Assembly (NCBI GenBank): GCA_964624625.1
Contig: CAZUXW010000003.1
Coordinates: forward strand, 1,728 to 65,727
Direction of reading: 5' to 3'
DNA length: 64,000 bases
From: an uncultured bacterium
GTDB taxonomy: Bacteria; Oederibacteriota; Muellerivitia; Muellerivitales; Muellerivitaceae
Under the pieces are notes generated by a model. It saw only the letters and a list, made by a program, of their open reading frames with translations. It was not told the origin of the DNA and did not search any database. The translations under genes were made by a program, and so were the position numbers. The first letter of the stretch is position 1. Each line of letters begins with the position of its first letter. Below are positions 14,717-62,167 of the stretch, one piece after another.

Positions 14717-14723
14717 TTGATGA

Positions 14724-19525: not shown

Positions 19526-19535
19526 TAAATCATTG

Positions 19536-22634: not shown

Positions 22635-22686
22635 CGTTTTTCCTCTTTAATAACGCCGACTTTCAATGACAAATGGTTAACCCGCG

Positions 22687-23229
22687 TCAAACGTAGCCCT
22701 TTTCCTTTAAGCGGACTTCCATCTCGTCCATCAGCGACTCATTCATGGAAAGCGCCTGGCGGCGGGTGATGGGATAGTCTTTCCGCAGGGGATGTCCCAC
22801 GAACTCATGGTGGTTTAAAAGCCGCTTCAAGTTGGGATGGCCGGAGAAACGGATACCCATCTGGTCGAAGGCCTCCCTTTCCAGCCAATCAGCGTTGGCG
22901 TAAAGGGTGGTGAGGCTCGGCACCACCGGCCCGTCCTCGGGGGCGGTCAGGGAGAGTTGAATTCGGTGGCCATGGCCCAGGGATTTCAAATGATAAATCA
23001 CGCCGAACCTCTCACCGGTCCATCCGGAAAAGGCCGAATAGTCCACAGAGACGATATCCACGAGCATGTCGAACTGAAATTCCGGGTCATCCCGCAGTAT
23101 TTTCACCATGCCGGCGAGCTGGGCGCGGTCCACCTGGACCTCCAGGGCGCCAAAACGATCCGCCGAACCAAGAATGGCTTGGGGGGTTTTTTCTTTCAAT
23201 TTTTCCAATAGCGCCGAGAATTCCATCAA
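22687..23229 (-). CDS. nuoC: NADH-quinone oxidoreductase subunit C
   Basis: 180 aa, 30-kDa subunit family, in conserved position. Confidence 0.85.
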   Translation of the reverse strand: MMEFSALLEKLKEKTPQAILGSADRFGALEVQVDRAQLAGMVKILRDDPEFQFDMLVDIVSVDYSAFSGWTGERFGVIYHLKSLGHGHRIQLSLTAPEDGPVVPSLTTLYANADWLEREAFDQMGIRFSGHPNLKRLLNHHEFVGHPLRKDYPITRRQALSMNESLMDEMEVRLKEKGYV

Positions 23230-23349
23230 AACCTCCCACCTTTCACCCCATGCCGCCTAAGGCAGATCGCAAAGTTGCGGTTCGAAAAAATATTTTCCAT
23301 TTCCACCCAAAGGCCTTTGTCCAGCTGTGACTCCGTGGTGAAAAGGTTG

Positions 23350-23855
23350 TTAATAATCAAACTTCGGTTCCTTTGCCATGAACTGCGCCGCCGGCGTCGT
23401 TCCCGGATTCTCGATCTTGTGCTGGAGCTTCATCACCGCCGTCAAAATAGCTTCCGGCCTGGGGGGGCATCCGGAAATGTACACGTCCACCGGGATGATC
23501 TGGTCGATGCCCTGCACCGTGCAATAGTTGTTATAAAACCCGCCCGAGGAGGCGCAGACGCCCATCGAGATCACCCACTTGGGCTCGCACATCTGCTCGT
23601 AAATTTGTTTCAGGATGGGGGCCTGCTTGAAGGTGACGGTCCCCGCGACCAACAAAAGGTCCGATTGCCGGGGGGAGAAACGCACCAACTCGGCTCCGAA
23701 CCGGGAAATATCAAACACCGAGGAAACCACCCCCATGAACTCGATCGCGCAGCAGGCGGTTCCGAAGGGCATGGGCCAGAGGGAGTTCTTTTGCCCCCAG
23801 GCGATGACAGCGTCCTTGCGGGTGGTGATGGCCGGAAAAGTTTCTACTCCCATTC
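23350..23855 (-). CDS. nuoB: NADH-quinone oxidoreductase subunit B
   Basis: Start at the internal ATG (MGVETFP...). Conserved [17 protein letters not shown] and GCPPRPEA motifs. The longer ORF-finder version would overlap nuoA. Confidence 0.9.
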
Positions 23856-24221
23856 CAAGGCCCCCCTTTTCCAGAGGTAAAACCAACCAAAGGCCAGGAC
23901 GCCAAGGAACCCCAACATTGAAAGGAACCCGCCCCAAGCCATTTTTTGGAACAGCACCGCCCAGGGAAAGAGAAATACGATCTCGACGTCGAATACCAGG
24001 AAGCACATGGCCACCAGGTAAAATTTCACGTTGAAACGGTGGCGGGCGTCCCCCGTAAGGGCGCTGGATTGGATTCCGCATTCGTAAGGGGAAAGCTTCG
24101 TTTCGTTGTCCTTGCGGGGTCCTAGGGCCTTGGATAACAACAGCATGGCCGCCGGAACCGCCATGGCGAGGAAAAGGGAAAGAACGATGGGAAGTAGGTT
24201 TTCAATCAGCTCGAAATTCAC
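23844..24221 (-). CDS. nuoA: NADH-quinone oxidoreductase subunit A
   Basis: Start taken at GTG 24221 ([13 protein letters not shown]...), with GGAGG 6 nt upstream. Conserved KLSPYECG motif. The upstream ORF-finder extension has no family counterpart. Confidence 0.85.
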
Positions 24222-24528: not shown

Positions 24529-25101
24529 TTACATAAACGAAAAGCCGACCAAAAAGGTCAGAGTGCCATTTTGGATATTCACGTTTTGCGCCACATTGTC
24601 CAGGCCCAATTCATAACGCCCGCTGACCAAAAATTTGTCGATATCCACTTCCACCCCGGCCACCAGGCCCACATCCGAAGTGGCAATGTTGGAAATGTTG
24701 CCGCCAGAGGCGTCTTTGGCGACCACATTCCAAGCAAAGGAAGGGCCGAATAAAATTCCGGGATTAACCACCGGCGAACCCAACGAAAGCTTCAAAAGCA
24801 CCGGAATTTCAATGTAATCCAACTGGGTGGAGGTGCTGGTCCCCGATATCTGGTTTCCCTTTTGCTCATAAAGAACCTCGGGACGGATGGCGAAGCTGTT
24901 CCCGAAATTGAGGCTCAAGAACCCGCCTCCCACCAGACCCAGTTTGGAATCGTTCGCCCCGCTGATGGTGCTGACATCCGCCCCGAGGAAATTCGAGAAG
25001 TTCGCCCCGGCTTCCAATCCCAAACTGAAATTCTGGGCGGCAGCCCGGCCAAGGGACAGCCCCGCCAGCAACAAACTAAACAGCATTATCTTGATTTTCA
25101 T
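24529..25101 (-). CDS. outer-membrane beta-barrel protein (OmpA-like / opacity-porin-type barrel domain)
   Basis: Signal peptide MKIKIMLFSLLLAGLSLGRAAAQ, alternating amphipathic strands, aromatic C-terminus ..LTFLVGFSFM. AAGGAGAG RBS upstream. Confidence 0.7.
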   Translation of the reverse strand: MKIKIMLFSLLLAGLSLGRAAAQNFSLGLEAGANFSNFLGADVSTISGANDSKLGLVGGGFLSLNFGNSFAIRPEVLYEQKGNQISGTSTSTQLDYIEIPVLLKLSLGSPVVNPGILFGPSFAWNVVAKDASGGNISNIATSDVGLVAGVEVDIDKFLVSGRYELGLDNVAQNVNIQNGTLTFLVGFSFM

Positions 25102-35820: not shown

Positions 35821-36975
35821 TTACCAAGAATCCCGGAGATTGTGGATCATTTCACCCTCGTTATAAACCACTCGAGGGGAAGCTCCCTTGGCCACGATGA
35901 AACTGCGGGTAAAGACCTGCCTTCCGGTCCCGGTCCCGGAGATCCCCACCTCAAATCCGCCCGGAAAGGAACCGTTCGCCGTGGCGTAACGGGGAGAGAC
36001 GACGGGAGGGGCGTCGGCCCAACCAGCCGTATTCGGACTGACGCCATAGCCAAACCCCGTGCTTAAAACGCCAGCTGGTACCTTGGTCAAGCACAAGACC
36101 TGCCCCTCGGGAATCGAGGGATTGGTGATGGAGGTCGCGGCTCCTGCCGTGGTCAAGGTGTAAAAGGTGCCGTTGGTCGGATCGGTTTGGGTCGGGTCCC
36201 AGGCCAAGGTCACCGCGATTCCGGTGCCGGCGTTTCCCGTGGTCGCCAGCCAAGTGACGACGTCCTTCATCAGGTTCGGCCCTCCCAAGGTCGATTTGGA
36301 AAGGTTCAACAATTGGTAATAATCCGCGAATTGGACGCTTTGCCACTCCACCAAACGGTAGGAAGAGGCTCCCTTAATGCTCTTGGGGTTGTTGCTGGTC
36401 AGGTAATAATAATAAAAACGGTAAAGGTCGACGACGATCGTGGCGGGCTTGCTATCCAGGAAGGTGACGGGACAGGCCCCCTTGGTGAAGACCGTCACCG
36501 GCGAGACATAAGTTACGTTATTGATGGTTTGGGCCATGTCATAGGCTCCGAAAAGAAGGCTGTTCCCGAAATTGGAAGCGGCCCCGCCGGCGGCCGTTGA
36601 AAAAGAGGCGAAACTGGAAACGGGTACCGACTGGGTGGTGGGAAGGAGGGTCCCGGCCAGGATGGGATAATTGGATTTCGTGGCCGCCGACATGCCCTGT
36701 GTCACGGCTTGAAGGAAGGCCGTTCCCGAGGCGTCGCCCTCCAGCAAATGCCTCGAGGCGGTGGCCCTCTCATGGATCCGGAGCAAGTTCAAGGAATTCA
36801 GGCTCTCGAGCTGGATATGCATCTCATCCGCGGCCATGCCTTGGGCGCACTTGGAGAAGAGCATGGTCATGGCTGGCGTGATGACTCCAATGATGGCCGT
36901 GACGATCATCAATTCCACCAGGGTCCATCCCCGGGAATTGAGCCCCTTCCGCCTCTCTCCCATGAGGGTCCTCAT
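35821..36975 (-). CDS. pilin-like protein with prepilin-type N-terminal cleavage/methylation domain (384 aa)
   Basis: NSRG|WTLVELMIVTAIIGVITPAMTMLF, with Glu at +5. Its ATG overlaps the upstream gene's stop (ATGA). Confidence 0.7.
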   Translation of the reverse strand: MRTLMGERRKGLNSRGWTLVELMIVTAIIGVITPAMTMLFSKCAQGMAADEMHIQLESLNSLNLLRIHERATASRHLLEGDASGTAFLQAVTQGMSAATKSNYPILAGTLLPTTQSVPVSSFASFSTAAGGAASNFGNSLLFGAYDMAQTINNVTYVSPVTVFTKGACPVTFLDSKPATIVVDLYRFYYYYLTSNNPKSIKGASSYRLVEWQSVQFADYYQLLNLSKSTLGGPNLMKDVVTWLATTGNAGTGIAVTLAWDPTQTDPTNGTFYTLTTAGAATSITNPSIPEGQVLCLTKVPAGVLSTGFGYGVSPNTAGWADAPPVVSPRYATANGSFPGGFEVGISGTGTGRQVFTRSFIVAKGASPRVVYNEGEMIHNLRDSW

Positions 36976-39900
36976 CGGTTAACCGAGATGTTGAGGTCGT
37001 GGTAGGAATAATGAAGGGGATAATTGGGCCGGTAGGCTTCCCCGCGGATCCAATAATTTCCCTGCTTAAACATGACTGGGTCGGAGATGTCCCAGTTGTA
37101 AACCATGGGGGCGTTGGACGCGAAGGTCATCCCGTGGGCCGCCGAATTGCTGTAGACCCCGATGGTAGCCCCCGCGTTGTCCCCGGCGAAATACCAATTT
37201 TTCTCGTCGGTGGACCATTTGAAATTGACCCAGAGGCTCGTCGCGGCCGATTCGGTATAGGTGCTCAACGACAGGGGCGCCCCTGCCGCGTAGCCGGGAT
37301 ACTCGTCGGTATAGAAATTCGCCGTATTGGAGCTGATCCCGGGGTAACGGTACCAAATATTCGTGATGGCCTGGGAGAAGGAAACCCCTCCCGAGGTGGT
37401 GACAGGGCTGGTCAAGGTAATGCCGACCGTATAGGTGGAGCTGGTGGGATAGGGATATTGGTTGTTGGGGCTGTTGACATAGACCTTCACCATGGGCAAT
37501 TGGGCGATATGGGCCGCGCCCGCGTAACGGCCGCCGTCCAGGAAAGACCGCAACAGCATGGCCATGGTGATTTTACCCAAGGCGGAGGTATCGAAGGTTC
37601 CTTGGGGCGCCAATCCGGAAAAGCTGAAGAAACAGGCTTGCGACACGGGGGAGTTGATGGACATCTGCACCACGCCCACCGTGTGCCAGAGGGCGTCCGG
37701 AGAGGAAGGTCCCGCGCCGGGCCCGCCGACGTTGTCGTAAAAGACCCGGTTCACGCCGCCAATGGACGGCATGGAAAGAAGGGTCCTGCGGCCATTGGCC
37801 GCGTCACTGTAATAGCTGCTGTTCCACTCGGGCGGGAGGTTGCCCGAGATGTTATCGGTCCAGGCCCAGGGCCGGGATCCCACCAGGGGGCTTTCCATCG
37901 GGAAATTGGTGATGTAGTAATTATTATCCGCCAGGGTCGTGGAATTGGCCGTGCCGTTGAAGTCGTGCATGAAGCCTTTTTTACTGCCCGCTGCCGTTTC
38001 CCCGTTCATAAAGGCGATGGGAGCCCTGCCCCCGACGCCCCATTGGTAATCACGGTTGTAATCATAACCAGTTTGAAAGTCGGTCGCGCCAGTATTGATT
38101 TGCTGGAGAGGTACCCGCCAAAAACCGGAGGTTCCCGTGGGAAGGTTGCCGTAAGGCTCCCAGGAATTTTGAAACCAATCGTCGGGAGAAAGCTCCCCTT
38201 CCCAGGTGCGGGCGAACCAAACGGTGTTGGGGTCTTGGGATCCCCCTGAAATATAGCGCATAATGCTGCGGGCAACGCCGGCTCCCGCGGAGGAAGTCCA
38301 GTTATCCGAGTTTTGGATCTCGTCGATGGAAACGGCGCCGCTGTTGGCGAAAGCCGGATCCCAAGGTTTCTTATCGAACTGGAGCGAATTCACCCAAGGG
38401 TTATAGGTACTGCCGATCTCGCCTCCCTCGCTGGCGTGCCAAAAGCTGTAACCGTTCAAGTTGCCGTAGATGGTCGTGTTGTTCAACAGGCCGTGGCGGT
38501 AGGTGTAGTAATAGCGGGGAATATCCCTGAGATCATGGTCGGTCGTATCGTAACCGGCGGCGGTTTGGGTGAAGCCCGAATATCCGTTGTTACCGTCAAA
38601 ATCCCGGAAGTACCAGTTATAGCCGTCCGCGTCGATGGTAACCGCCGAATCGGTCGGGTCCACCACTGTCGTTCCAAATTTGACGTCGAGGTAGGGGCAA
38701 TCACGGGGATCGCCATTAAATTGGAAGCGCTCGGTCCAAGGCACGATACCGCTGGTGGAGGTTCCCACCGTCCCGGATCCGGTGCCGACCCAAAAATAAG
38801 TTCGAGATAGGTTCAGCTTTTGGTCCACCGATCCCGCGGAGGTTCCCGTGGTCAGGTCGTTGCCCAAGCGGGTTTCCACGGCGAATTGGCCTTGCGGAAT
38901 AAAACCGCTGGAAGTGTTTTTAAGGGCGATGATCCACCTGGCGGTATTTCTCGCCGTTTTGTTGGGAGCGATTAGATCCGTCGCGAAACTAACCGAACTA
39001 GCCGTATCCACAGGACAGGGAATATATTCGGCTCCGTAAAGCCTAGAGCTTTTCGCCAAGCCCGTCGTCACGCCGCCTGTGACAACCTCCGGGCACCTCA
39101 TGGGTGTGTTGAAAAGAGTTAAAAGCGTATCCGTACCATTGGGATGAGAAATGGAGGTTGCCATACCATAGACGGTGGTACTCGTATTCGCGATGGCGGC
39201 ATAACTGTAAGCCGTGGAAACTCCGGCATTATCCACGCCTCCAATGACCGCGGTGATCCCCATGTTGAGATAATCCATTTGAAGATTTGGAAAATAAAGC
39301 GAGATGGTGGAGGCCCGGTTGCCGATGGAAGTCGCTTGGGAGGTATCCAAAGCCGAGGGATCGATCAACCCGTCATAATAATTATAAACCCGCAAGGTCA
39401 CGCCGTTGCCGAATTTGCTATGGAGCAATTGGGGATGGGTCACCACTCGGCGGTAGCGGTTGCTGGTCGGGTCATAGACGCCTCCCGGCAAGGGATCGTC
39501 CAGGGGATCCTTGGCCGGGTCGGAGTAATTGCGCATATTGGGCAGGGGCAAAACTTCCCCGTGCATGGAAAGGATTAGGGCGTTTTTGTAGTTGGTGGAG
39601 CTGTTCAACTGCTCCAGGAACATGCGCAAGGTGGGAGCCGGCAGGTCCGAGGGTACGACCGGCTGGCCCTGGGCGACCTTGGCGGCTGCGGCGGCGATGG
39701 TGATGGCCGCGTATTGGGCCAGGGCGTCCGGATAGCGCATGTCCGCGTTATACATGTCGCACATTGCGGTTTTGTAGGGACTGTCCTGTAGGTTGTAGTC
39801 GAGCAGGATATTGCCTGCCGCTTGAAGTTCGGTATTATCAAAAAAATTGGCGTTGGAGAATGGTGGGGAAGCTGAATAATCCTGACCGCAAAGTCCTGGA

Positions 39901-40712
39901 TAAAGATAAACAAAGGGTAGATCACTCGTAGCATAGCCGGAAATGGTAGTCACTCCGCCTGCTATCGTATATCCAGTAATGGAAGCAGCAGCTTGGGCCG
40001 CGTTAATACTGGGACGGTAATAGGGATCCCGGCCATAGCCCGTTTGCGTGATGTTATGAAGGCGCAGTTCCAGGCCCGGGTTGCGTTCCTGGATATCCTG
40101 GGCGACCCGCTTGAAGGTGGGAACCATGCTGGGAATGGTGGTGAACCATCCCAAAACGTTGGAGAGTCCTAAGCAGTAAACATCCAGGACCTGCTTGGAC
40201 GATTCCACGCTGGCGATGGTCCTTAAGTAGCCCCCCACGGTGGCCAGGAGGTCGCCCGGATTGTTGGGGTCCGAGTCCGAATCGTAAAGCCAAACCTTCA
40301 CCACCACCTGCCTGGCCCAAACATCGTTGGGCACGTTGTTGACGGCGATTTGGCGCAGGTAGCGCATATGGCCGTTGGAGAGCCTGTTGCCGCTGAGCGG
40401 ATCCAGGGGATTGGCCGTGGGCAGGCCCGTGTCCACGAGTTGGTCCGTGGTCAGCACCGTGTTGTAGCTTTTACCGTCGCTGTAATTGTTGAGGACGGAA
40501 ACCCCCAATTTTTCCGATCCGTTGACCAGGGCCCTCAGTTCCTCGAACATTTGGATGGCCTTTTGGGTGGCGTAGGCCTTATCCGAGGCCTTGACCGTCT
40601 GCTTGGCCATGTAGGAACGGGCGATCATGACGCTGGAAGCCAGGATGGCCAGGAGCGCCACGGCGATGGAAAGTTCGACCAGGTTGTAGCCTTGTTGATT
40701 TAATTTTTTCAT
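36972..40712 (-). CDS. giant pilin-like protein (1246 aa) with prepilin-type N-terminus; putative pilus-associated adhesin
   Basis: MKKLNQQG|YNLVELSIAVALLAILASSVMIA class III signal with Glu5. The remainder is Asn/Thr/Ser/Tyr/Trp/Gly-rich, and I recognise no catalytic motifs in it. Confidence 0.65.
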   Translation of the reverse strand: MKKLNQQGYNLVELSIAVALLAILASSVMIARSYMAKQTVKASDKAYATQKAIQMFEELRALVNGSEKLGVSVLNNYSDGKSYNTVLTTDQLVDTGLPTANPLDPLSGNRLSNGHMRYLRQIAVNNVPNDVWARQVVVKVWLYDSDSDPNNPGDLLATVGGYLRTIASVESSKQVLDVYCLGLSNVLGWFTTIPSMVPTFKRVAQDIQERNPGLELRLHNITQTGYGRDPYYRPSINAAQAAASITGYTIAGGVTTISGYATSDLPFVYLYPGLCGQDYSASPPFSNANFFDNTELQAAGNILLDYNLQDSPYKTAMCDMYNADMRYPDALAQYAAITIAAAAAKVAQGQPVVPSDLPAPTLRMFLEQLNSSTNYKNALILSMHGEVLPLPNMRNYSDPAKDPLDDPLPGGVYDPTSNRYRRVVTHPQLLHSKFGNGVTLRVYNYYDGLIDPSALDTSQATSIGNRASTISLYFPNLQMDYLNMGITAVIGGVDNAGVSTAYSYAAIANTSTTVYGMATSISHPNGTDTLLTLFNTPMRCPEVVTGGVTTGLAKSSRLYGAEYIPCPVDTASSVSFATDLIAPNKTARNTARWIIALKNTSSGFIPQGQFAVETRLGNDLTTGTSAGSVDQKLNLSRTYFWVGTGSGTVGTSTSGIVPWTERFQFNGDPRDCPYLDVKFGTTVVDPTDSAVTIDADGYNWYFRDFDGNNGYSGFTQTAAGYDTTDHDLRDIPRYYYTYRHGLLNNTTIYGNLNGYSFWHASEGGEIGSTYNPWVNSLQFDKKPWDPAFANSGAVSIDEIQNSDNWTSSAGAGVARSIMRYISGGSQDPNTVWFARTWEGELSPDDWFQNSWEPYGNLPTGTSGFWRVPLQQINTGATDFQTGYDYNRDYQWGVGGRAPIAFMNGETAAGSKKGFMHDFNGTANSTTLADNNYYITNFPMESPLVGSRPWAWTDNISGNLPPEWNSSYYSDAANGRRTLLSMPSIGGVNRVFYDNVGGPGAGPSSPDALWHTVGVVQMSINSPVSQACFFSFSGLAPQGTFDTSALGKITMAMLLRSFLDGGRYAGAAHIAQLPMVKVYVNSPNNQYPYPTSSTYTVGITLTSPVTTSGGVSFSQAITNIWYRYPGISSNTANFYTDEYPGYAAGAPLSLSTYTESAATSLWVNFKWSTDEKNWYFAGDNAGATIGVYSNSAAHGMTFASNAPMVYNWDISDPVMFKQGNYWIRGEAYRPNYPLHYSYHDLNISVNR

Positions 40713-40737
40713 TTTCGTCCCGTCCTTTCAACGCTTC

Positions 40738-42489
40738 CTACAAGTTCGGTATGGCCAATAAGGTTCTTCGGGCGGAGATGGTTTCCCGGTATTGGGCCAC
40801 CAGGTTTTTCGCCTGGAGAATTTGGCCCGGGTTATAAGTGACCTTGGCGTAGCTGCTGCCGGTCCCGTTCAAGTAAAGAAGGCCCGGCCTGGCGTGGAAA
40901 TAAGGCTGGCCCATGATGAGGGCTCCCTCGATCTCGCAGCCCGCGAGGACCGTCACATCGCCCGTCACGAAAACCACGCCCTTATAGCTGCTGGGCAATA
41001 CGGTGGAGGTCCCCGGATTCAAGGTCAAATCCCCATCCACGATCAGGATTCCGGAGGCGCGGAGGGTGTCGTAGGGCGGGTCCAAGTTTCCGTCATAAGT
41101 CAGGTTGCCCGTGAAATAGGTAAGCTTCCAATCGCTGGTGATGGTGAGGGGCGAGTTGTTATCGCCGGTGTAATCCGCCAGGCTTTTTAATTCCTGTAGG
41201 GACATGCCGAAGACCGATTGGTCCAGGGTGAGGTCGGTAACGGTGATGGGCGCCGGACCCACTCCGACCGTGGGCGTGGGGTAATTAAAGCAATAGGCGT
41301 TCCCGTCCATATCGGTGGTGTTGGACCCGGGAACCACGCAGGCCCCGGTGGCCGGGGGAATGACCGGTGTTCGGGTAAAGGTGGAGGTAAAGGTGGCCGT
41401 GGGTTGGACGGTTCCGGTAAAGGTGATGGAGGGGGTGAAGGTGAAGGTATCGGTGGGAATCAAGAATCCCGGGGTGCTGGTGGAAGTCGGGGTTTGAGTG
41501 GGTGTGTTGGACGGCGAATTGGTCGGGGTTTTAGTAGGCGTGTTGGTGGGGGTAACAGTCGGCGTGTTCGTCGGGGTTCTCGTGGGAGTATTGGTGGGGG
41601 TAATGGTCGGAGTGTTACTTGGTGTATTGGTGGGGGTAATGGTCGGTGTGGCCGTCGGGGTTCTGGTGGGAGTAGGGGTCGACGAATTTGTCGGCGTGGC
41701 CGTCGGGGTTCTGGTGGGAGTAGGGGTCGGTGTGTTACTCGGGGTTTTAGTGGGGGTAGCGGTCGATGAATCAGTCGGCGTGTTCGTGGGGGTTTTGGTG
41801 GGAGTAGTAGTTGGCGTGTTCGTCGGCGTATTGGTAGCCGTCAAGGTCGCGGTAAGGGTAAACGTCTTGGTGAAGGTAGTGGTAAAGGTGGGAGTGGGGC
41901 TATTCGTCGGGGTAAAGGTCGGGGTAATCGTCGGGGAATTGGTGGGGGTACGGGTAAAGGTATTGGCCAAGGTCAGCGTAAAAGTTTGGGTGGGAGTTGC
42001 CGTATTGCAGGGCACCGTAAAGGGAATGGCGTCCGAATCCTGGGTCGTAACGACCGCGGGGCATTGGGGAGCAGCATTATGCCTGGCGGAAACGACAAGG
42101 AACCCCGAGGTAAAACCGGCGGGAATGGTGAGGGTCTGGCTGATGACCTTAGGACTGGCGGTGCAGGTGACATTGCAAGAGGCGGAATTGCAGCCGCCGC
42201 AAAGGGCGAAAACATCGCCCGCGTCCATGACATTATCCGCCGAAAAGGCGTAGTTTAAATCATAGGACCCTGTGGTGAAATTGGTGATTTGAAAATTGAC
42301 GGTGACGGTCCCTCCGACGTTGCCGCAATTCGTCGAAACACTGGTAATGGTCACGGTCGTTAGGGACGCGGCCCGTGCCTGGGGAACCCCCGCGCCTAAC
42401 CACAAGCCCAGCAGCAAGCAGAAGGCTCCGGCCTTCATGCCGGATCGGGTTGGCGGGGTTAAGTTCGTTGGTGTGACTTTCGATACCAT
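40738..42489 (-). CDS. secreted protein with a ~150-aa (T/N)TPT(N/R)TPT repeat linker
   Basis: Signal peptide [23 protein letters not shown]|AS. Cys-rich N-domain, long TPT repeat region, C-terminal domain. ATG 42489 has AAGGA 8 nt upstream. The ORF-finder TTG start is at 42516. Confidence 0.6.
41480..41950. repeat. coding tandem repeat (12/24/57-nt periodicities) encoding the TPT-rich linker
   Basis: Reiterated gtcggNgtgttNgtNggggtt... units. A near-identical ~57-bp unit (..tggccgtcggggttctggtgggagtaggggtcg..) is duplicated in tandem. Confidence 0.7.
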
Positions 42490-42544
42490 GTCGCTGTCCT
42501 TTTTAGTCTGCCGCAATTGTCGCTGTCTCGAGGCTCCCGGCCCC

Positions 42545-43561
42545 TTACTTGGTCATGGAGATGGCCGGATAAGTTCCGGTTCCCGAGACCGAACCGCCGA
42601 AAAGATAAGTTTGGTTGTTCTTGAGGTAAATTTGGGTGGTGCTGTTCACGTAAACCCCGGCGGTAATGTTGTTGATGTCGGTGGTGGGCATATTCAAGGC
42701 GAGCTTGCGGTACTCGGTGCTGAACTTGGCCTGGGCCAGGACTTTTCCGGCCAGACCCGTGGTGCCGGGAACCGGCGTCGCGTAACCGTACTTCCAAGTT
42801 CCGTCGGGATTGGTTTGCTTGTCGAAGCGCCGGTAGACGATGCCGCGGCTGACGACGGTCCAGATCATGCCGTCCCCGCTGACGAGCCCCGTGGAACTGC
42901 GTATGCTGGTGACGTCATGGGCCGCGTCCGGATCGGTGGCGCCGACCGGCTGCTTTTTAATCTCGTACCTGCCCCACAAGAGGGCCTCCGCCGTCACCGC
43001 GCTGTCAATCGGATATTCGTTGACGATGCCGATATTCGAGTCCAAGGTGTCGGATAACTGGAGATTGGGGTTGTTTTGCGGATTGAAGGCCTGGTCCACG
43101 TAGGAAAAGGAGACGCCTGTCGCGGGGTTGGTGGCGAAGGTGGCGGGCGCCGCCACTTTTTCCGTATAGGAAGAATTGGGATAGGCCCTCACCACGTAGT
43201 CGCCCCCCGCGCCTGGCTGGCGCCGGAACCAACTCAAGGCGTCGACGAGGCCGGCCCTGGACACATTCTCGGCTTCGGAAACGAACAACTCCCTCTGTTG
43301 GACCTCTTTGGAGGCGTAGTTGATCAGCTTCACCCCGGTGGTGATCAAAATGGTCGCGATCAGCATGAACATGATGGCCAAAATGAGGGCCGAGCCATGG
43401 TCTTTTTGGGTGTTGGGAATAAAAAAGAAGGGTTTTTTGCCAAGACGGAACGAGGAGTACGGGTTTAAAAATCCCCGGCGAAGGCGTGTCGAATTAAATT
43501 GTCGCAGGTGTTGATCCATAATCTGCCGCTCCCGACCCGTTAATATTCCATAATTTATCAT
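42545..43561 (-). CDS. PilX/GspK-like minor (pseudo)pilin-type protein (start uncertain)
   Basis: Hydrophobic segment [23 protein letters not shown] resembles PilX_N/GspK N-termini (GSALIxALxxxLxL). 338-aa ORF. Candidate ATGs at 43561 and 43519. Confidence 0.45.
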
Positions 43562-54688: not shown

Positions 54689-55279
54689 GTGCCGGCGGAT
54701 CAACCGGCGGTCGCTACCATTTCAACGCGCATGAAGGTTTTTATGGCACTGGACCGTTTGTCACCTGAGCAATTGAACGCACTTGGAAGCATGAGCAGGG
54801 AAATCCATGACGAGTATAGAAACTTGGGCTTCGCCGGATTCTCCCCGGACCCCATCCGTTACCTGGCCTTCCGCACCCAAACCAAAAATTTCCTCCAAAC
54901 GAAGCTGGTGGTTTCCGACGCCGGGGTATTTTTCTTGGATCCCGCCAGGAAAATAAAATATAAATTCCATCAGGGTTATTTTTTCGTTTATCACGAGGGA
55001 TTTCATCAAGTGGATGAGCAAAAAATCAAGGAAGCCGAGGGCCCCGTCATCCTCCTGGATAACCTGTTGGAGTTCTGGAAACGCCAGGGAACAGGGCTTT
55101 GCCTCGTAGCGGACCACCTCAATCACTGCGATTATCTTTTTCCCGAGCAAAAAGCCGAGTTGGAGCGGGTCCAGCGTTTATACAACAAGGATGAATTCGT
55201 CATCAATCCCATGCTCCAAAAAAAATCCAAGGAAAACCCCGCCGGACAAGCGGTAGGAGTTTTCGACCTGGAAGATTAA
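54689..55279 (+). CDS. hypothetical protein (196 aa)
   Basis: ORF with no recognised motifs. Confidence 0.4.
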   Translation: MPADQPAVATISTRMKVFMALDRLSPEQLNALGSMSREIHDEYRNLGFAGFSPDPIRYLAFRTQTKNFLQTKLVVSDAGVFFLDPARKIKYKFHQGYFFVYHEGFHQVDEQKIKEAEGPVILLDNLLEFWKRQGTGLCLVADHLNHCDYLFPEQKAELERVQRLYNKDEFVINPMLQKKSKENPAGQAVGVFDLED

Positions 55280-55288: not shown

Positions 55289-57388
55289 TTAGAGGCCTGC
55301 CTGGTCCAAAGCCTTTAAATTTTCCGCCGCTGGAGTCAGGTTCAATTTCGAGTGTACCGCTTTTTGAAAAGCCGCCCTGGCTAACGCGGTCTTTCCCTGC
55401 TGGACGAGGATGGCTCCCTCCTCGTTGTAAAATTCCGCCAAGGGATAGCCGTTTTGAAGTCCCTCCCGGATGGCCTCCAAACATCCCAATTCGTCATGGT
55501 CGATGGCACGGTGGGTGAAGACCTTTTCCCAAAAACAGGACTGTAAGAAGGGATCATCCCCCAAAAGGTCCTTCACTTGATAAATCCGGTCCAGAATGAG
55601 GCTTTGTGATACCCAGGGGGAAGAACTGATGACCGCGTAGGTCGCCCCTCTCAATCCCTGATTGACTTCGAACCATTTGCTCAAGCCGGCCCGATTTTCC
55701 TCATTCAAAGGAATGACGCCCAGCATCCAATAGCCCACGGATTTTTTTTCACCGATCCAGTACCACTTCCCCGCGGGAAACCTCTCGGCCAGAAAAGGAC
55801 GGTAATTGGCGTCCGTCACCACAGAAACCCAATGGGCATCCTCAAAAGTGAATTTGGGATTGCGGCAAACATCAAAGGGATAAGCCGCCATGATGAGCGA
55901 AGGATCCGCCACATGGGTTCTCAAATCCGCCAGAACCGCTCCCGGACCCAGATCCTTGTTCGTTTTCATTAATATATCGTAAGCCCTGGACAGTTCCGGC
56001 GACTTCCGCAGTTCCCAACCAGTCCCCGGCTCCCCCCAAACCCGGTGGAACCGGGAGAAAAGATGGTGGCAGTCCAAAGCCACCGAGGACAGGAATAGAA
56101 TAATAATCAACGTGATTTTTCCAACGGTCTTCGGCGCGTCCCACAGCGAGAACATTCCCATCACCACGGCGACAATCACCAAAGGAAGGATTTGGAATAT
56201 CCTAAAGGTATCAAACCCCGTGGCTGCGACCGCTGGCAGAAAAAATACCCCGAAAGAAAGGAAAACCCAACGGACCGCGGTACGCCGACGCCATTTCCAC
56301 CCTTCCATGAGGCCCAGCAAAAAAAAAGAACCCAAGATGGGGTTCAACATCCCACCCCAAACAGGACCGTAAAGAATGGACCAATCGTATCCCCAAAAAA
56401 CCGCCCGCACATGGGCGAAGAAATCAGATCCCTGTTGTGCCCAATCCATTCCCGAATGAAGGGCCCATAGTTTTTGGAAATATCGGCCGTTCTTCTCGTG
56501 GAGGGAAGCCCATGCGAACAAAAACGCGGGAGGTGCCATGGAACTCAAAAGCGGAAGAAGGAATCCCTTTTCCTTCGGCTTTTTTCGATCCATAAAATGA
56601 ACCGCCAGGACCACCGAACTGGCGACCACCAACCAGGCCCGGGCCACAAAAAAACCAAGCCCGGCCGCCCATCCCAGCGCCCGAAGAAGACAAGGCCTCC
56701 GAACGGGGGATTTCTCGGTTATGAAGAGGGATAGCAACAGGAACGTCAACGCTTCCCAAAAAGGCATGGCGGCTTCGGGTATGCAAAAGCGGCCGTTGAA
56801 CCAAGGCCAAAAGCTAAACCCCATCCAGCAAAAACAAATCAGGGAAAATGTTTTTGAGAATATAGTCCTAAAGGCGAAACAATAAAGCCCCAAAGTCATG
56901 GCGGAGAGCATGGCTGGGAATAACCAAATCGTAAAAAGAGAAGGCTGGAAAAACTTGAAAAATAAGGCCAGGCTCCAATTGAAAAATAGCGGCTCCTGCC
57001 CAAAGGTAAAGAAAAAATGCCAGGACCAGGCTTTGGAAAGTTCCGAAGAATAATAAGAAAAGTAGCCGTCGTCGGGAAAAAGCCAGCGGGAAAGTTCGGT
57101 GAGTTGAAAAAACCGGGGAATGAGCGCCAACAACCCAACCGCCCAATAGATCCAGGGAGGAATGGATTCGAACGATTCCCGCTCAAAGGCTGGTTTTTCA
57201 TCCGGAAGGGGTGAAGACTCCTGGCGCATCAACCAACCCAGGGGGATTAAAATTCCTGCCAAACCCAAAAGAATTTTGACGTAACTTCCCAGGGGGCCAT
57301 AAGACAATAAAACATTCGTGAGGAGGAAAACAATAAAAACAACAGGCCGAGAATGACCGGGAACCCGCTTGACGTTAGGGAAGGTCAT
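55289..57388 (-). CDS. GT-C-type glycosyltransferase-like polytopic membrane protein (ArnT/PMT/TMTC-like) with C-terminal TPRs, paralog A
   Basis: ~12 TM segments. First-loop acidic motif W-LFPDDGYFSYYSSELS is like the ArnT/PMT DE-x-RY motif. C-terminal TPR-like helices. Start taken at the ATG overlapping the upstream TPR gene stop (57388). Confidence 0.55.
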   Translation of the reverse strand: MTFPNVKRVPGHSRPVVFIVFLLTNVLLSYGPLGSYVKILLGLAGILIPLGWLMRQESSPLPDEKPAFERESFESIPPWIYWAVGLLALIPRFFQLTELSRWLFPDDGYFSYYSSELSKAWSWHFFFTFGQEPLFFNWSLALFFKFFQPSLFTIWLFPAMLSAMTLGLYCFAFRTIFSKTFSLICFCWMGFSFWPWFNGRFCIPEAAMPFWEALTFLLLSLFITEKSPVRRPCLLRALGWAAGLGFFVARAWLVVASSVVLAVHFMDRKKPKEKGFLLPLLSSMAPPAFLFAWASLHEKNGRYFQKLWALHSGMDWAQQGSDFFAHVRAVFWGYDWSILYGPVWGGMLNPILGSFFLLGLMEGWKWRRRTAVRWVFLSFGVFFLPAVAATGFDTFRIFQILPLVIVAVVMGMFSLWDAPKTVGKITLIIILFLSSVALDCHHLFSRFHRVWGEPGTGWELRKSPELSRAYDILMKTNKDLGPGAVLADLRTHVADPSLIMAAYPFDVCRNPKFTFEDAHWVSVVTDANYRPFLAERFPAGKWYWIGEKKSVGYWMLGVIPLNEENRAGLSKWFEVNQGLRGATYAVISSSPWVSQSLILDRIYQVKDLLGDDPFLQSCFWEKVFTHRAIDHDELGCLEAIREGLQNGYPLAEFYNEEGAILVQQGKTALARAAFQKAVHSKLNLTPAAENLKALDQAGL

Positions 57389-58836
57389 CCCTTTTCGAAT
57401 TCCCTTAGGATCACCGTCGCTCTTCCCCTTTCCACCGGAGATAATCCGGGGCGATTGAGGAAATCGTTTAAAACTTTTTTCCCCTTTTCCCATTGGCCGA
57501 TTTGGCTTTGAGCCAGGGCTAAATTGATGGTCAGGGATAGGGGCAGGGGCTCGGATTCGGCCTCCAGCAGCTCAATCAACCCGGTTTTATTTCCTCTTTT
57601 TCCTAATTCGGAGGAAAAGAAAAGGAGTATTTCCTCGTTATGGGGCGAGCGGCGGAGCGCTTCCCTCAAGGTTTCCTCCGCTCCGGGCCATTGGTCGTCG
57701 TCCGCCTGGCCCTGAGCCTTGACCAAAAGGGGCGCGAACCCCGCGGGATTTTCGGCCGCCAACCGGTCCAGCCATTCCAATCCCTCCTCTTTTCGGTCCG
57801 TCTCCCGGAACAAATGATAAAGCTGGCGCAAAACGTCCAAGCGCTGGGGATCCAATTGGACCGCTGTTTGGATCTCCTCCCAAGCCAGGTCCCTTTCATC
57901 GAGGGCTAAATATACCTTGAATAGATTCAAATGAGCCGTTACCGACTGTGGATTTTCATCCAAATAACCCATCAAATGTTTTTCCGCTTCCTGATAACGG
58001 CCCGCCTCCAAATGGACCGTTCCCAGGCCCAAGAGGGCCTCCAAGTTATCCGGGGCGCTTTTCAACGCCTTCTCAAAAGCCTGGACGGAGAGGCCGTGGA
58101 TTTGGTTTTGAAGCAGGCCCCAACCCAATTTCAATAAGGCTTCCGGCGCCTGTTCTTTTTCGACGATTTCCCCCATTTTTTTCTCGTACTCGGCCCTGCG
58201 GATGAAAGTCGCCGCCTCCCCTTCCTTTTTACCCAGGCCACGCAGTAAAAAAAGCTCCCCCAATCCCATGAGCTGCTCCAGCACAAAATGGTCCCCCGGC
58301 AGCAGTTCCAAGGCTTTCCAAAAAACTTCCGAGGCTTTTTTCTTTTCCCCCATCGCCTGGTAGGTCCGCCCCAAGTTGCTGTAAATCCATCCGGACTCGG
58401 GAGCCATCCTCAAGGCCTGTTTGTAAAAGGATTCGGATTTTTCCAATTCCCCTGTTATCCGAAAGCAGTATCCCAGTTGAAAACAAGTTAAAGGGCATTC
58501 CGGATCAATATCGAGGATTTCCACCAGTTTCGGGATCGCCTCGGCGAATCGGCCGGATTCGAAATAGGGATTCACTTCCAATAATTTCGGCCATTTTTTC
58601 ACGAAGAGCTGGTAAAGGTAAGCCCCTGGAGCCCCCGGCGACTGCTTTAAAAGCTCTTCCATGGCTCCCACCCCAGCCTGGAAGTCATAACCCTTTTTTT
58701 CTACTTCCTCCTGTTGGTGGATCCAAAGAGGCGCGTGGGAGGGAAGGTGATGGAATTGGGCCAAGGCCTTCGGAAGGGATACAAAGGTAATTTCCGGCGG
58801 AACACCGGGTGATCTTTCAAAAGAATCCGCGCTCAA
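57385..58836 (-). CDS. TPR-repeat protein (483 aa)
   Basis: Multiple 34-residue TPR-like repeats (A/Y/L patterns, e.g. ..AEKHLMGYLDENPQSVTAHLNLFKVYLAL..). Sandwiched between the two GT-C-like paralogs. Confidence 0.6.
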   Translation of the reverse strand: MSADSFERSPGVPPEITFVSLPKALAQFHHLPSHAPLWIHQQEEVEKKGYDFQAGVGAMEELLKQSPGAPGAYLYQLFVKKWPKLLEVNPYFESGRFAEAIPKLVEILDIDPECPLTCFQLGYCFRITGELEKSESFYKQALRMAPESGWIYSNLGRTYQAMGEKKKASEVFWKALELLPGDHFVLEQLMGLGELFLLRGLGKKEGEAATFIRRAEYEKKMGEIVEKEQAPEALLKLGWGLLQNQIHGLSVQAFEKALKSAPDNLEALLGLGTVHLEAGRYQEAEKHLMGYLDENPQSVTAHLNLFKVYLALDERDLAWEEIQTAVQLDPQRLDVLRQLYHLFRETDRKEEGLEWLDRLAAENPAGFAPLLVKAQGQADDDQWPGAEETLREALRRSPHNEEILLFFSSELGKRGNKTGLIELLEAESEPLPLSLTINLALAQSQIGQWEKGKKVLNDFLNRPGLSPVERGRATVILREFEKG

Positions 58837-58922
58837 AGTGTTTCTCCTTTCCCGTCCCAGGATGTCGCGACCCCTAGATTATCCGCCCTCCCGCCGGCCC
58901 TGACAACCGCCTCGGCAGGCTC

Positions 58923-61091
58923 TCACTCGTTTGGCTTGACTCCCGTTTTTTCCAGCTCCTCCAAAGCGGCCAGGCCAGCGGCAGCGGAAGTATGGTTCAG
59001 GCCGCAGTGGATGGCTTGTTGAAAATTCTTCCGGGCCATTTCCCAGTAACCGCGCCGCATGTAAAGAGCCCCCAAACTATTATAAAGATGGGCCGCTGGA
59101 ATCCCCCGCGCCAGGGCCTTTTGCAGAGCCTGGACTTGGGCGGAATATTCCCGGTCGTGGTAATCATACTCCGCAATTTTTTCCCAAAAACAGGATTCTA
59201 AGAACGGCTCGCCTTTGAACAAGGGATAGAGGCCCGCCAGGCTTTGTAATATCGGTTTTGAACTTTTCCAATCGTGGTTATCGTAAACCTGGCCTGTCAA
59301 ACTATGGGAAGCCTGCTCGGCCTCGATATACTTGTTCAAAACCTCAGGGCGGGAAACAGGAAGCGGAAGGACCCCAAGCATGAGCCCCCCATGGGGTGGG
59401 ACGCAGTCCGAGGCCAGCCAAAACCAGCTGGCTTCGGGAAATTGTCCGGATAGATAAGGCTGATAATGAACATTGATTAAAATCGCCGCCCACCGGCATG
59501 GAACCTTCGATAGTTTCTGGTTTTGAGCGGCGTTGAAGGGATAAGTCGCCACGGATAAGCTTTGATCGAATATATCCGGAACCAGGTCCGAGAGAATGGC
59601 CCCCGGGCCTTGTTCCTTGTTCAATCTCTCCAATATTCCGAAGGCCCTCAATCTTTCGACCGACTTGGAAGCGAACCAATTATCCTTAGGGGCCGTCCAA
59701 AGGGAATGATAAACCCCGAATAATTGCCTGGCGTCCAAAAGGCTGGAAAACAACATCATTGCCGCCACGAAATATATTCTTTTGTTCTGAGAGAGAGTTG
59801 AGGCCAGCGAGGCGAGTCCCAGGCTTGAAGTGAAAATCAAAAATGGCATGGTTTGAACCACGCGGTGGCCGTCCAACCCGCCCGTCAAAAACCCTGGTAG
59901 AATTAAGATGAAAAAGAAGATTCCCTGTTTCCAATAAGAGAATCCCGCCCTCGCTAAAATCACCGTTCCCCAAAAACAAAAGGCCCCCAACAGGGGATTT
60001 AAAAAACCCCCTCCAAAGGGCCGATAAGCGAAAAGGTAGGGAGGAAGACGGCTTCCCCAAAACATGGCGCAGGTATCGTTCAAACCGGTCCATCCCGGGC
60101 CCAATGGGTTTTGCAAAACATAGCGGAAATGTCCCCCTCGATCACCCAGCGTGGTCCAGGCCAAAATCAGGAACAATATGATTTCCGGAATAAAAAAATA
60201 AAGAAATTTACCCCATTCCCCTCTCCGGGCCCCCACGGTTAGCTTAAAAACAAATAGGGTCAGGATAAAAGCGACGATCGACCAGGAGGTGAAGGTGTAA
60301 AAACCGACCCCGGCGCAAAATCCCAAAATCCAACTGGATTTCAACCGGGCTTTTTCGCCTTCCGCTCGCAAAAAAATCCCGAGACAATAAAAGGTCAGGG
60401 CCATCCAACCGGCGAGAAAACCACCCTGAACCGAAAATCGACCCAAATAAAGCGGCCAAAAACTGACCGCCCAAAAACCCGTCAACAGGAACGTGAAGGA
60501 CCTTGAAAATAATAAGCGCGCGCCGGCGAAAACGAATCCCACGGCCAAGGTGGAAAGCAACGCCGGAAAAAACCAAAGCGTCGCAAGGGAAATCCCAAAA
60601 ATCTTAAAAAATAACCCAAGGCCCCAAACATAGAGAGGAGGCATCCCGCTGAAATCATAGGTGAGCTGCCAAGCCCCTTTTTCGGCCAACTCGATGGCGT
60701 AATGCCCGTTCATCGCCTCGTCTTCCAAGGGCCATTCGGATAGAGTGGTGAGTTGATGGAACCTCAAAAAAAGAGCGGTCAAAGCCAATAAGATCCAGGC
60801 CAGAAGCGGAATTTTGGGGATCCACTCCCCTTGTAAAGCCTCATTCAACGAAGACCTTTTCCCCTGAACGGCCCGAACGGCAAGAAGGGCCGGCAAGAAA
60901 AGGCCGATCAGCGCGATCCAAAATTTCCACTCCAAGGAAATGGTAAAATAAGACAGGACGCTGTTGGCGGCGCAGAATAAACCAAAAATCATCCAGGGAA
61001 AAAAGCGTGATTCCAGCGGGTAAAGCGGTAAACGTTTCAAAGGAGCCGCCTTAAAAAAGATGAACGATCTCTTCATTAATAAAAACACCAC
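58923..61091 (-). CDS. GT-C-type glycosyltransferase-like membrane protein with C-terminal TPRs, paralog B
   Basis: Clear paralogy to 55289-57388 (FLESCFWEKI vs FLQSCFWEKV, YPFNAAQNQK vs YPFDVCRNPK). First-loop motif WPLEDEAMNGHYAIELAEK. Confidence 0.55.
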   Translation of the reverse strand: MVFLLMKRSFIFFKAAPLKRLPLYPLESRFFPWMIFGLFCAANSVLSYFTISLEWKFWIALIGLFLPALLAVRAVQGKRSSLNEALQGEWIPKIPLLAWILLALTALFLRFHQLTTLSEWPLEDEAMNGHYAIELAEKGAWQLTYDFSGMPPLYVWGLGLFFKIFGISLATLWFFPALLSTLAVGFVFAGARLLFSRSFTFLLTGFWAVSFWPLYLGRFSVQGGFLAGWMALTFYCLGIFLRAEGEKARLKSSWILGFCAGVGFYTFTSWSIVAFILTLFVFKLTVGARRGEWGKFLYFFIPEIILFLILAWTTLGDRGGHFRYVLQNPLGPGWTGLNDTCAMFWGSRLPPYLFAYRPFGGGFLNPLLGAFCFWGTVILARAGFSYWKQGIFFFILILPGFLTGGLDGHRVVQTMPFLIFTSSLGLASLASTLSQNKRIYFVAAMMLFSSLLDARQLFGVYHSLWTAPKDNWFASKSVERLRAFGILERLNKEQGPGAILSDLVPDIFDQSLSVATYPFNAAQNQKLSKVPCRWAAILINVHYQPYLSGQFPEASWFWLASDCVPPHGGLMLGVLPLPVSRPEVLNKYIEAEQASHSLTGQVYDNHDWKSSKPILQSLAGLYPLFKGEPFLESCFWEKIAEYDYHDREYSAQVQALQKALARGIPAAHLYNSLGALYMRRGYWEMARKNFQQAIHCGLNHTSAAAGLAALEELEKTGVKPNE

Positions 61092-61189: not shown

Positions 61190-62167
61190 ATGGAAACTCT
61201 GATTTCTTTAGTGGGACCCCTTCATCCGCCCCTGGTGCATTTCGCGGTGGCATGCCCCATTTTAGCTTTCTTCGCCCTGGCGGCCCAAAGGGTTCTTCAA
61301 AAAGAATGGCTGGGCCAGGCCGCCGCGGCCCTTTGGTTTCTCGCATTTTTAACTTCTCTGGCGGCCGGTGTAACCGGTCATTTTTTTTCCGTTCATTTAG
61401 GATTGGAAACGCAGCTTTCCATTCTTCCCCCCGAGAGCGCCTCCCAAGGCAGGCTTCGGGAGCATGTTTTACTGGGAAGTGGCTCGATGTTGCTTTCGAT
61501 CGCCGTCCTTTTCGCGGCCATCCGGACTTTCCGTGAAAAACCCCTCCCTCGGAACACCCAACTTTGGCTCGCCCTAACCGCCGCGCTCCTCGCCGGTTGG
61601 ACGGGCCACGAGGGCGGGGAAATGGTTTACGGTTCGGATAACGCCGCCGCTTCGTCGGAGGCAGCCCAAGAAAAACCGCAAACAGGTGATCCAGCCCATT
61701 CCCCCGCTTCGGTAAAATCCACGGAATTCACCAGTCTTTTTCGCGATTATCGAAAAACCCTCACGCCCATGAACAGCCGGCCCTGGAACAGCCGGACCCA
61801 CGGGCACCGCTGGGTCAATACTTTCGTCTCCAAGGACGCCGTAACAGCCTACCAAAAATCCGACCCTTTACCGGAAGGAAGCCAGGTCGTCAAAGAATCC
61901 TTTGAGGACGCCGGCGGTAAACCCTCGGGACAAGCGGGACCCCTTTACGTCATGGTCAAGGGTCCCGCCGCCGCCTCACCGCGAACGGGAGGGTGGCGTT
62001 ACGCCCTCGTCTGGGATAAGCCCGTGCCGAACAATCCGGAAAATATTTTATCCCCGGTCCAATGGCTCCCGGGCGACCCCCATTTAAATTCCTGCGTTAA
62101 ATGCCACAATCATTTCAAGCTGGCGGATTACCTGGGCGGGATTCCCGAAGGTTTTGAGAATAAATAA
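61190..62167 (+). CDS. membrane protein with DUF2231-like N-terminal domain and C-terminal CXXCH (heme c-binding) motif
   Basis: N-terminus LHPPLVHFAVACPILAF... is DUF2231-like, with 4 TM. C-terminal soluble part ends ..NSCVKCHNHFKLADY (CxxCH), compatible with a small c-type / P460-like cytochrome domain. Confidence 0.45.
   Translation: METLISLVGPLHPPLVHFAVACPILAFFALAAQRVLQKEWLGQAAAALWFLAFLTSLAAGVTGHFFSVHLGLETQLSILPPESASQGRLREHVLLGSGSMLLSIAVLFAAIRTFREKPLPRNTQLWLALTAALLAGWTGHEGGEMVYGSDNAAASSEAAQEKPQTGDPAHSPASVKSTEFTSLFRDYRKTLTPMNSRPWNSRTHGHRWVNTFVSKDAVTAYQKSDPLPEGSQVVKESFEDAGGKPSGQAGPLYVMVKGPAAASPRTGGWRYALVWDKPVPNNPENILSPVQWLPGDPHLNSCVKCHNHFKLADYLGGIPEGFENK

Follow-up and report, generated by a model that had tools for sequence, protein, structure and literature searches.

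The 64,000-nucleotide stretch analysed here, from an uncultured bacterium and hereafter called the window (positions 1,728 to 65,727 of contig CAZUXW010000003.1, forward strand), lies within an 89-kb metagenome contig (European Nucleotide Archive ERZ27245396) that serves as locus L001 in our comparisons. It carries three co-oriented genes, all on the minus strand and in the order A-T-B: A and B encode paralogous membrane proteins predicted to be glycosyltransferases of the GT-C fold, and T, placed between them, encodes a tetratricopeptide repeat (TPR) protein. The genes and the elements that join them are as follows.

58923..61076, minus strand: gene A, predicted GT-C-fold glycosyltransferase, 717 aa from ATG 61076 (from the list of open reading frames, ORFs; 100% identical to protein P0001)
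58837..58922, minus strand: A-T intergenic spacer, 86 bp, containing the GGAGA ribosome-binding site of T
57385..58836, minus strand: gene T, TPR protein, 483 aa, TTG start with GGAGA upstream
57388-57385, minus strand: ATGA overlap of the T stop codon and the B start codon, 'gggATGAcc', read from the sequence
55289..57388, minus strand: gene B, paralogous predicted GT-C-fold glycosyltransferase, 699 aa from ATG 57388 (public gene call)

The maximal ORF of gene A spans 58923-61091 (722 aa), and the public gene call opens it at a TTG (705 aa); its likely true start is ATG 61076, where homologs open with the same 'MKRSF'. For gene B the maximal ORF runs from 55289 to 57493 (734 aa). The ATGA overlap between T and B, already pointed out in a preliminary description of this DNA, is present as claimed, and the public call of B starts on it; in the window, T and B are predicted to be translationally coupled through this element. 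The A-T spacer also contains a sigma-70-like site on the minus strand (TTGTCA-17-GATAAT, 58906-58878), a match to the consensus only (10/12), which may be a promoter of T's own (and of B's). Scans of the region for sigma-70 sites and terminators did not exceed the shuffled expectation, with two sigma-70-like sites found against 4.4 expected.

Both A and B are predicted to adopt the GT-C fold, of the GT-C_A (ArnT/PMT/OST/TMTC) type, as a divergent branch of the PMT_2/ArnT/PMT group. With the family alignment as input, AlphaFold2 modelled A at a mean predicted local distance difference test score (pLDDT) of 91.4 and a predicted template-modelling score (pTM) of 0.91, and comparison of this model with the PDB by Foldseek returned GT-C enzymes for all 29 best matches. 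ArnT came first (CmArnT, 5f15; E 4e-7, template-modelling score, TM-score, 0.53 on the target), and further matches included AglB, Pmt4, Pmt1-Pmt2, ALG9, ALG12, STT3, PglB, AftB and PimE. The likeness to ArnT-type enzymes that the preliminary description had put forward, GT-C fold included, is thus borne out by the predicted structure. At the sequence level, a word-indexed search yielded 88 homologs, and 51 members were aligned for all family statistics given below. PMT_2 (PF13231; Pfam gathering threshold 26.1 bits) is matched by 43 of these 51 at E<=0.01 and is exceeded in score by P0019 (49.5 bits), P0067 (32.7), P0039 (32.5) and P0004 (28.1). PMT (PF02366) is reached by only two members, of which P0060 passes its threshold (27 bits against a cutoff of 22.7). 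An hhalign comparison of the family profile with E. coli ArnT (NC_000913) gave an E-value of 1.9e-4 and a probability of 47% over 193 columns, and it placed the family's W-P-x-x-D-E on the W28-QPDE32 segment of ArnT. The A/B family can still be recognised as an offshoot, divergent and expanded, of a known enzyme superfamily, outside the named member families compared below.

The model of A and the family alignment resolve both proteins into the following parts.

59697..61001, minus strand: predicted membrane domain of A, residues 31-465, 13 transmembrane (TM) helices (from DSSP assignment of the model, hydropathy and the positive-inside rule)
60717..60734, minus strand: acidic motif of A, W120-P-L-E-D124-E125, at the start of the core's first predicted periplasmic loop
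59262..59660, minus strand: predicted periplasmic alpha/beta domain of A, residues ~478-610, ~130 residues with a four-stranded sheet (from the models)
58944..59258, minus strand: C-terminal TPR-like region of A, residues ~612-716, two to three hairpins closed by a capping helix
57068..57085, minus strand: acidic motif of B, W-L-F-P-D-D, the equivalent of W120-E125 in A (family alignment)
55292..55603, minus strand: C-terminal TPR-like region of B (aligned with A; Pfam TPR_2 at 16.6 bits)

About 12 TM helices with an acidic motif in the first loop had been proposed for each protein. The motif stands where it was placed, at residues 120-125 of A and at W137-L-F-P-D141-D142 of B in maximal-ORF numbering, and the helix count needs revision: the model of A has 13, with two short extra N-terminal helices (31-48 and 53-74) ahead of an 11-helix GT-C core that begins at 96-111, so that the acidic loop follows the third helix and is the first loop of the core. 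In the 51-sequence alignment D124 is Asp in 50 members, position 125 is Glu or Asp in 49, and the D124-E125 pair itself occurs in 45; R110 (49/51), R218 (47/51), R410 (47/51) and D453 (50/51) are likewise conserved, and all six positions are kept in both A (with D-E) and B (with D-D). A further motif, G361-G362-x-L-N-P, is nearly invariant and sits in the long 318-365 loop between core TM7 and TM8.

Charge distribution gives the orientation of these loops. The density of Lys and Arg is 0.192 in the predicted cytoplasmic loops against 0.055 in the periplasmic ones, with the same sign in all 51 sequences; by this positive-inside bias the acidic loop, the C-terminal domain and the loop at 318-365 are all predicted to face the periplasm, in agreement with all solved GT-C enzymes. 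The predicted periplasmic side of the acidic loop agrees with the preliminary description, which a cytoplasmic loop would have contradicted. That a periplasm is present, and the organism is diderm, follows from an outer-membrane beta-barrel protein encoded in the window (24529-25101).

The C-terminal TPRs claimed for both proteins exist, in shorter form than that claim implied and preceded by a domain it had missed. Between the membrane part of A and its TPR-like tail lies the alpha/beta domain, which contains the invariant residues G495, W534 and L547; it has no separate sequence match in the PDB and no informative structural match there. When the C-terminal 255 residues of A were modelled separately (pLDDT 92), the matches were to TPR proteins only, and the C-terminal model superposes on three-repeat consensus TPR (CTPR) proteins with a TM-score of 0.76 and a root-mean-square deviation of 3.3 over 126 columns. 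Individual Pfam TPR matches in the tails of A and B fall below threshold; the family profile scores about 30 bits per repeat unit against consensus TPR proteins.

A full-length alignment of A and B (693 residues) gives 31% identity (E 2e-101), and the two are best read as ancient paralogs. Their paralogy had been recognised before, together with blocks of near-identical sequence that turn out to have been overstated: the best 15-residue windows have ten identical residues, and the longest identical run is the six-residue SCFWEK. The nearest relatives of B in a library clustered at 50% identity are only 42% identical to it. Of the 15 full-length genome loci compared, L004 alone has an ortholog of B in the same position (49% identity), so that, with the window contig counted in, B stands downstream of T in only two of 16 loci (L001 and L004); a separate short metagenome contig, L022, shows the same arrangement. 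B is absent from L002, the locus most similar to the window. This distribution points to B as an accessory to the pairing of A with T. Beyond the end of the window, L001 encodes a third paralog of the family at 1-1539 (gene call of 708 aa), about 8.4 kb upstream of A.

Roughly ten TPR motifs are recognised in T, with TPR_19 at 5e-30 among several Pfam matches. The earlier view of it as an all-TPR protein does not extend to its first ~90 residues, which form a conserved non-TPR segment. Neither a signal peptide nor a lipobox, TM helix or hydrophobic segment was detected in T, and an in-frame stop bars a longer N-terminus; because it has no signal peptide, T is probably cytoplasmic. The T family is lineage-specific and sharply delimited: it comprises about 100 orthologs at 44-83% identity, apparently single-copy, beyond which scores drop from 302 to 86 bits. 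T recurs within a block in which a divergent cytochrome P460/DUF2231 gene is followed by A, T and a convergent gene for a 196-aa protein. In the window these flanking genes are the DUF2231/cytochrome P460 fusion at 61190-62167 (plus strand), which adjoins A, and the 196-aa protein at 54689-55279 (plus strand), which lies beyond B and has no Pfam match. In ten loci A and T are neighbours at a distance of 26-550 bp; in six others they lie about 3.5-4.6 kb apart, split by an opposite-strand gene for a 1168-aa protein (five loci) or by an inverted paralog (one). The 1168-aa protein is secreted; an example is encoded at 12108-15614 of L007 on the minus strand. Many T orthologs also share short contigs (5.4-10.7 kb) with A-family proteins, and in L022 the gene after a T ortholog (63% identical to that of the window) encodes a family member with no more than 32% identity to A. 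The A-T pairing appears from these comparisons to be conserved and old, and the linkage may reflect either a functional tie or a stable block of the core genome.

The second of these options has considerable weight. A, T and B could be neighbours by descent only, in which case the TPR protein T would serve cytoplasmic housekeeping with no part in glycosylation and B would be an incidental copy of an expanding family, and we hold this to be a serious contender at a little under even odds. T without a signal peptide would fit such a role, as would its stronger conservation relative to A in the same loci (60-77% against 43-68% identity). The flanking genes are as syntenic as A and T themselves (57-83% identity for the 196-aa protein and 48-65% for P460/DUF2231 across loci), the 1168-aa gene intervenes between A and T in five loci, and B is missing from most. 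Shared descent accounts less readily for the persistence of a family GT-C protein beside T even at ~33% identity, on short contigs too, and for the ATGA coupling of T and B in the window. The dedicated, duplicated modification module of the preliminary description is doubtful on these grounds: the A-T pairing is kept, but B occurs in only two of the 16 loci, T has no signal peptide, and no genes for donor supply were found nearby.

The A/B family appears confined to the uncultured candidate phylum FCPU426. The 16 loci come from a scan of one genome per species, and most are titled 'candidate division FCPU426 bacterium'. Two of them, L008 and L010, are titled 'uncultured proteobacterium' and have the same P460-A-T-196aa synteny, with A at 46% and T at 67% identity; these titles are probably taxonomic mislabels. 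When 1.84 billion representatives of 50%-identity clusters were searched exhaustively with the profile (609 positions), 612 clusters reached E<=1e-30; among the top 150 of these, most are ~660-730 residues long (range 534-865), and nearly all cover most of the profile. At E<=1e-3 the number rises to 11,779 clusters, which merge into the wider PMT_2 superfamily. Most family copies are unnamed in databases or called 'hypothetical protein', and some carry the name 'glycosyltransferase family 39'.

Several paralogs occur per genome, and tandem arrays contain three to four or more. In L019/L020 (CAWIIP010000002.1, a 2.05-Mb contig, at ~1.566-1.582 Mb), about 20-40 kb from the A ortholog, three tandem paralogs are followed by an ABC-2 type transporter pair. 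At least four tandem paralogs lie at 8001-16463 of L023, beside a DUF3078-MscL-hydrolase-methyltransferase block that is also found upstream of A on the window's contig. In L021 (1770-6974), a 715-aa paralog overlaps by 4 bp the end of a SQS_PSY - SQS_PSY - amine oxidase trio; the trio resembles the hpnCDE genes of squalene synthesis, and a second paralog, P0076, stands 1 kb further on. The presence of many diverged paralogs suggests many acceptors or many linkages.

Our main reading, to which we assign a probability of about 0.6, is that A and B are integral-membrane GT-C transferases that move a sugar from a polyprenyl-phosphate carrier to a periplasmic acceptor, putatively a protein. Fold, homology, topology, motif and synteny are the observations on which we build our proposals for the type of donor, the roles of the catalytic residues, the class of acceptor and any role of T. 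A or B would take a polyprenyl-phosphate-linked sugar that has been flipped across the inner membrane to its outer face and would transfer it onto the periplasmic acceptor. The D124-E/D125 pair would serve as the catalytic or acceptor-activating site, R110, R218 and R410 would probably grip the donor phosphate, and the periplasmic alpha/beta domain together with the short TPR tail would choose the acceptor, so that the diverged paralogs of a genome might differ in acceptor or sugar specificity. T, if involved at all, would be a scaffold or regulator that acts on the cytoplasmic side, and not a partner in the periplasm.

As to the acceptors, we tentatively favour proteins, in the form of O-glycosylation of Ser/Thr-rich secreted or envelope proteins, at a likelihood that falls somewhat short of one half. 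This preference is by analogy: both characterised kinds of GT-C enzyme with non-cytoplasmic TPRs (TfpW and TMTC1-4) O-glycosylate proteins, the motif is of the PMT-type D-E, and genomes of FCPU426 encode Thr/Pro-rich linkers (window 40738-42516; L017). Thr/Pro-rich ORFs number three in ~370 kb, one of which (in L017) adjoins an A ortholog, and are too few to support or reject a link. The window's own example (40738-42516, minus strand), in which a signal-like N-terminus is combined with a (T-P-T-x)n linker of ~230 residues, lies about 13 kb from the A/T/B genes. In L017 the ORF (5809-9588, plus strand) encodes a secreted enzyme of 1259 aa with multiple domains and several Thr/Pro-rich linkers; it is co-oriented with the A ortholog and 377 bp upstream of it, the sole such adjacency among the loci examined.

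A more ambitious version of the protein-acceptor proposal would place A-T at the heart of a protein O-glycosylation system specific to the FCPU426 lineage, in which T, in the cytoplasm, couples donor supply or substrate export to the periplasmic GT-C/TPR paralogs and these decorate the Thr/Pro-rich linkers of secreted enzymes as well as pilin-like and surface proteins. If true, it would provide a bacterial counterpart of the eukaryotic division of labour between PMT and TMTC enzymes; we regard it as a long shot.

A number of results weigh against A and B being transferases that glycosylate periplasmic proteins. Gene A scores 21.2 bits against PMT_2, below the 26.1-bit threshold, and gene B has no PMT_2 match in Pfam, only a sub-threshold TPR_2 hit at 16.6 bits. 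The profile link to glycosyltransferases anticipated in the preliminary description is therefore one of the family (43 of 51 members, several above threshold), and PMT_2 membership reaches A and B by transitivity because their homologs, and not A or B alone, pass the threshold. The N-terminal, TPR-free family profile found no solved GT-C chain, ArnT included, among PDB sequences, and the full-length profile matched TPR proteins only; because sequence alone fails to reach the solved structures, fold comparison was required. Among 30 window ORFs searched with Pfam and in seven related loci, we found no polyprenyl-phosphate-sugar synthase (GT2), GtrA flippase or sugar-nucleotide gene, so a 'dedicated module' is unsupported beyond A, T and B themselves. 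T and the TPRs of A and B are likely separated by the membrane, which argues against a simple periplasmic TPR-TPR partnership, and the A-T synteny may be inherited order without functional coupling. A may also be functionally altered by the loss of a membrane-embedded glutamate (E230M, below). Finally, ArnT, the best structural match, acts on lipid and not on protein.

This last point underlies an alternative in which A and B, like ArnT, add a sugar to lipid A, the lipopolysaccharide core or another envelope glycolipid and so alter surface charge or permeability. ArnT is also the only solved GT-C enzyme with a weak profile match to the family, the organism is diderm, and the 4-bp overlap of a paralog with the hpnCDE-like trio in L021 hints at a lipid connection. 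We nevertheless consider lipid acceptors unlikely, since no arnBCADEF-like or other donor-synthesis context was found and ArnT is a single-copy enzyme without TPRs, whereas the many TPR-tailed paralogs here suggest many macromolecular acceptors; moreover, the Foldseek E-values of the protein-glycosylating AglB and Pmt4 lie within a factor of ten of that of ArnT.

The tandem arrays bring a different alternative into play, namely that the paralogs are envelope-polysaccharide transferases that add side-chain or backbone sugars in the manner of Emb/Aft or three-component GT-C systems, one linkage per paralog. Glycan-building GT-C families typically have large paralog sets and tandem arrays, the structural matches include AftB and PimE, and the three-paralog array followed by an ABC-2 transporter pair recalls polysaccharide export. 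ABC-2 transporters serve many other roles, however, and TPR modules are more often protein-binding; with no GtrA/GtrB-like partners or polysaccharide cluster beside A, T, B or the examined arrays, we find this alternative doubtful.

Residue 230 (window 60402-60404) raises the further question of whether A is active. It is a membrane-embedded Glu in 47 of the 51 members, B included, and Met in A; the closest relative of A, in L002, has Ala. Such a change at a near-invariant position would suit catalytically dead scaffolds that bind partners through their TPRs only, a role that might extend to A, to B or to both. We judge this very improbable, given that D124, E/D125, R110, R218, R410 and D453 are kept in A and B, that B retains E230, and that the L002 relative keeps all else beside its Ala, which suggests tolerated variation. 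The idea that B compensates for the loss of E230 in A was rejected, as L002 has neither E230 nor B and L004 has both.

Other genes of the window may be noted for context. Four co-oriented genes at 35821-43561 (minus strand), none with a Pfam match, look like an unusual pseudopilin or surface-fibre locus; two of them, at 35821-36975 and 36972-40712 (1246 aa), both on the minus strand, encode proteins with prepilin-like N-termini, and a third is the gene of the Thr/Pro-rich protein at 40738-42516. A small protein with a prepilin N-terminal methylation motif (PF07963, 9e-10) is encoded at 8455-8943 (minus strand). A long NADH:quinone oxidoreductase (nuo) cluster occupies 9451-24081 on the minus strand, and the strong positive AT skew at 10-18 kb arises because its membrane-protein genes lie on that strand.

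The main present gain is one of annotation: both A and B can be assigned to the PMT_2 superfamily as GT-C glycosyltransferases. Databases contain many bacterial GT-C enzymes that end in TPRs, almost none of them with a known acceptor, TfpW being one of the rare characterised cases. Against this background the A/B family provides an example with a confident model and strong expansion, into hundreds of clusters at 50% identity, in a phylum of which no member is cultured, and it lends itself reasonably well to studies of how TPRs guide GT-C enzymes in bacteria. Should the acceptors be proteins, extensive periplasmic O-glycosylation would be indicated in FCPU426 and the family would offer a bacterial model of short TPRs that steer a GT-C enzyme.

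Among known systems, ArnT (GT83; PDB 5f15/5ezm), the transferase of 4-amino-4-deoxy-L-arabinose to lipid A, shares with A and B the GT-C fold, the acidic motif that opens the first periplasmic loop, a periplasmic C-terminal domain and the PMT_2 superfamily. It differs in having no TPRs and in its 13 TM helices, which start at core TM1, whereas A has two extra N-terminal helices ahead of an 11-helix core; it is a single-copy gene of the arn operon and is only ~14-17% identical to the A/B family. No arn genes were present among the scanned window ORFs and flanks near A-T-B, and an ArnT/GT83 identity was rejected for want of both a significant ArnT match and an arn context. The PMT/GT39 enzymes (Pmt1-Pmt2, Pmt4 and actinobacterial Pmt) share the 'DE' motif in loop 1, and Pmt4 and Pmt1-Pmt2 are structural matches. 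They differ by a MIR beta-trefoil in a lumenal loop, in place of which the A/B family has its C-terminal alpha/beta and TPR domains. The MIR domain was matched neither in A or B nor in the 51 family members, and a PMT/GT39 identity was set aside on this ground and because PF02366 is reached by so few members.

TMTC1-4 are eukaryotic cadherin O-mannosyltransferases with a DUF1736 (PF08409) loop between TM7 and TM8 (PMC7801869). They resemble A and B in the cytoplasmic N-terminus, the acidic pair in the first external loop (EL1; DD in TMTCs, D[E/D] in the family), the long TM7-TM8 loop with a small helix, the 11-TM core and the non-cytoplasmic C-terminal TPRs. The TMTC-like architecture suggested in the preliminary description is a loose match: TMTCs are eukaryotic, have a long lumenal TPR array and lack both the alpha/beta domain and the two extra N-terminal helices, and DUF1736 was matched neither by A or B at E<=1 nor by the 51 members at E<=0.01. 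A TMTC identity was rejected on the missing DUF1736 match and on a TPR tail of only two to three hairpins. The TMEM260/DUF2723 O-mannosyltransferases likewise carry TPRs in a non-cytoplasmic domain behind the GT-C membrane domain; DUF2723 (PF11028) has no match in A, B or any of the 51 members, and a TMEM260 identity was dismissed accordingly.

Compared by description, TfpW of P. aeruginosa appears to be the closest characterised bacterial analogue in architecture. This GT-C pilin O-arabinofuranosyltransferase has a periplasmic TPR domain and acts on protein Ser/Thr (bioRxiv 10.1101/2020.04.19.049825); it has in common with the A/B family an N-terminus in the cytoplasm, a core of 11 TM helices, the acidic motif in the first periplasmic loop, a best template in ArnT and TPRs at a periplasmic C-terminus. 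The tfpW gene lies directly downstream of pilA, often with genes for D-arabinofuranose (D-Araf) synthesis (bioRxiv 10.1101/2020.04.19.049825), whereas A-T-B has no adjacent pilin gene, the nearest prepilin-like genes being ~15 kb away (35821-40712) and at 8455-8943. No alpha/beta domain is reported between the membrane part and the TPRs of TfpW, and the A/B family has one. A pilA-linked, TfpW-type gene was rejected as an identity for A and B, whose neighbours are instead the P460/DUF2231 gene, T and the 196-aa protein. What sets the A/B family apart from all these systems is the combination of two extra N-terminal helices, an alpha/beta plus short-TPR domain, restriction to FCPU426, paralog expansion and T as a neighbour.

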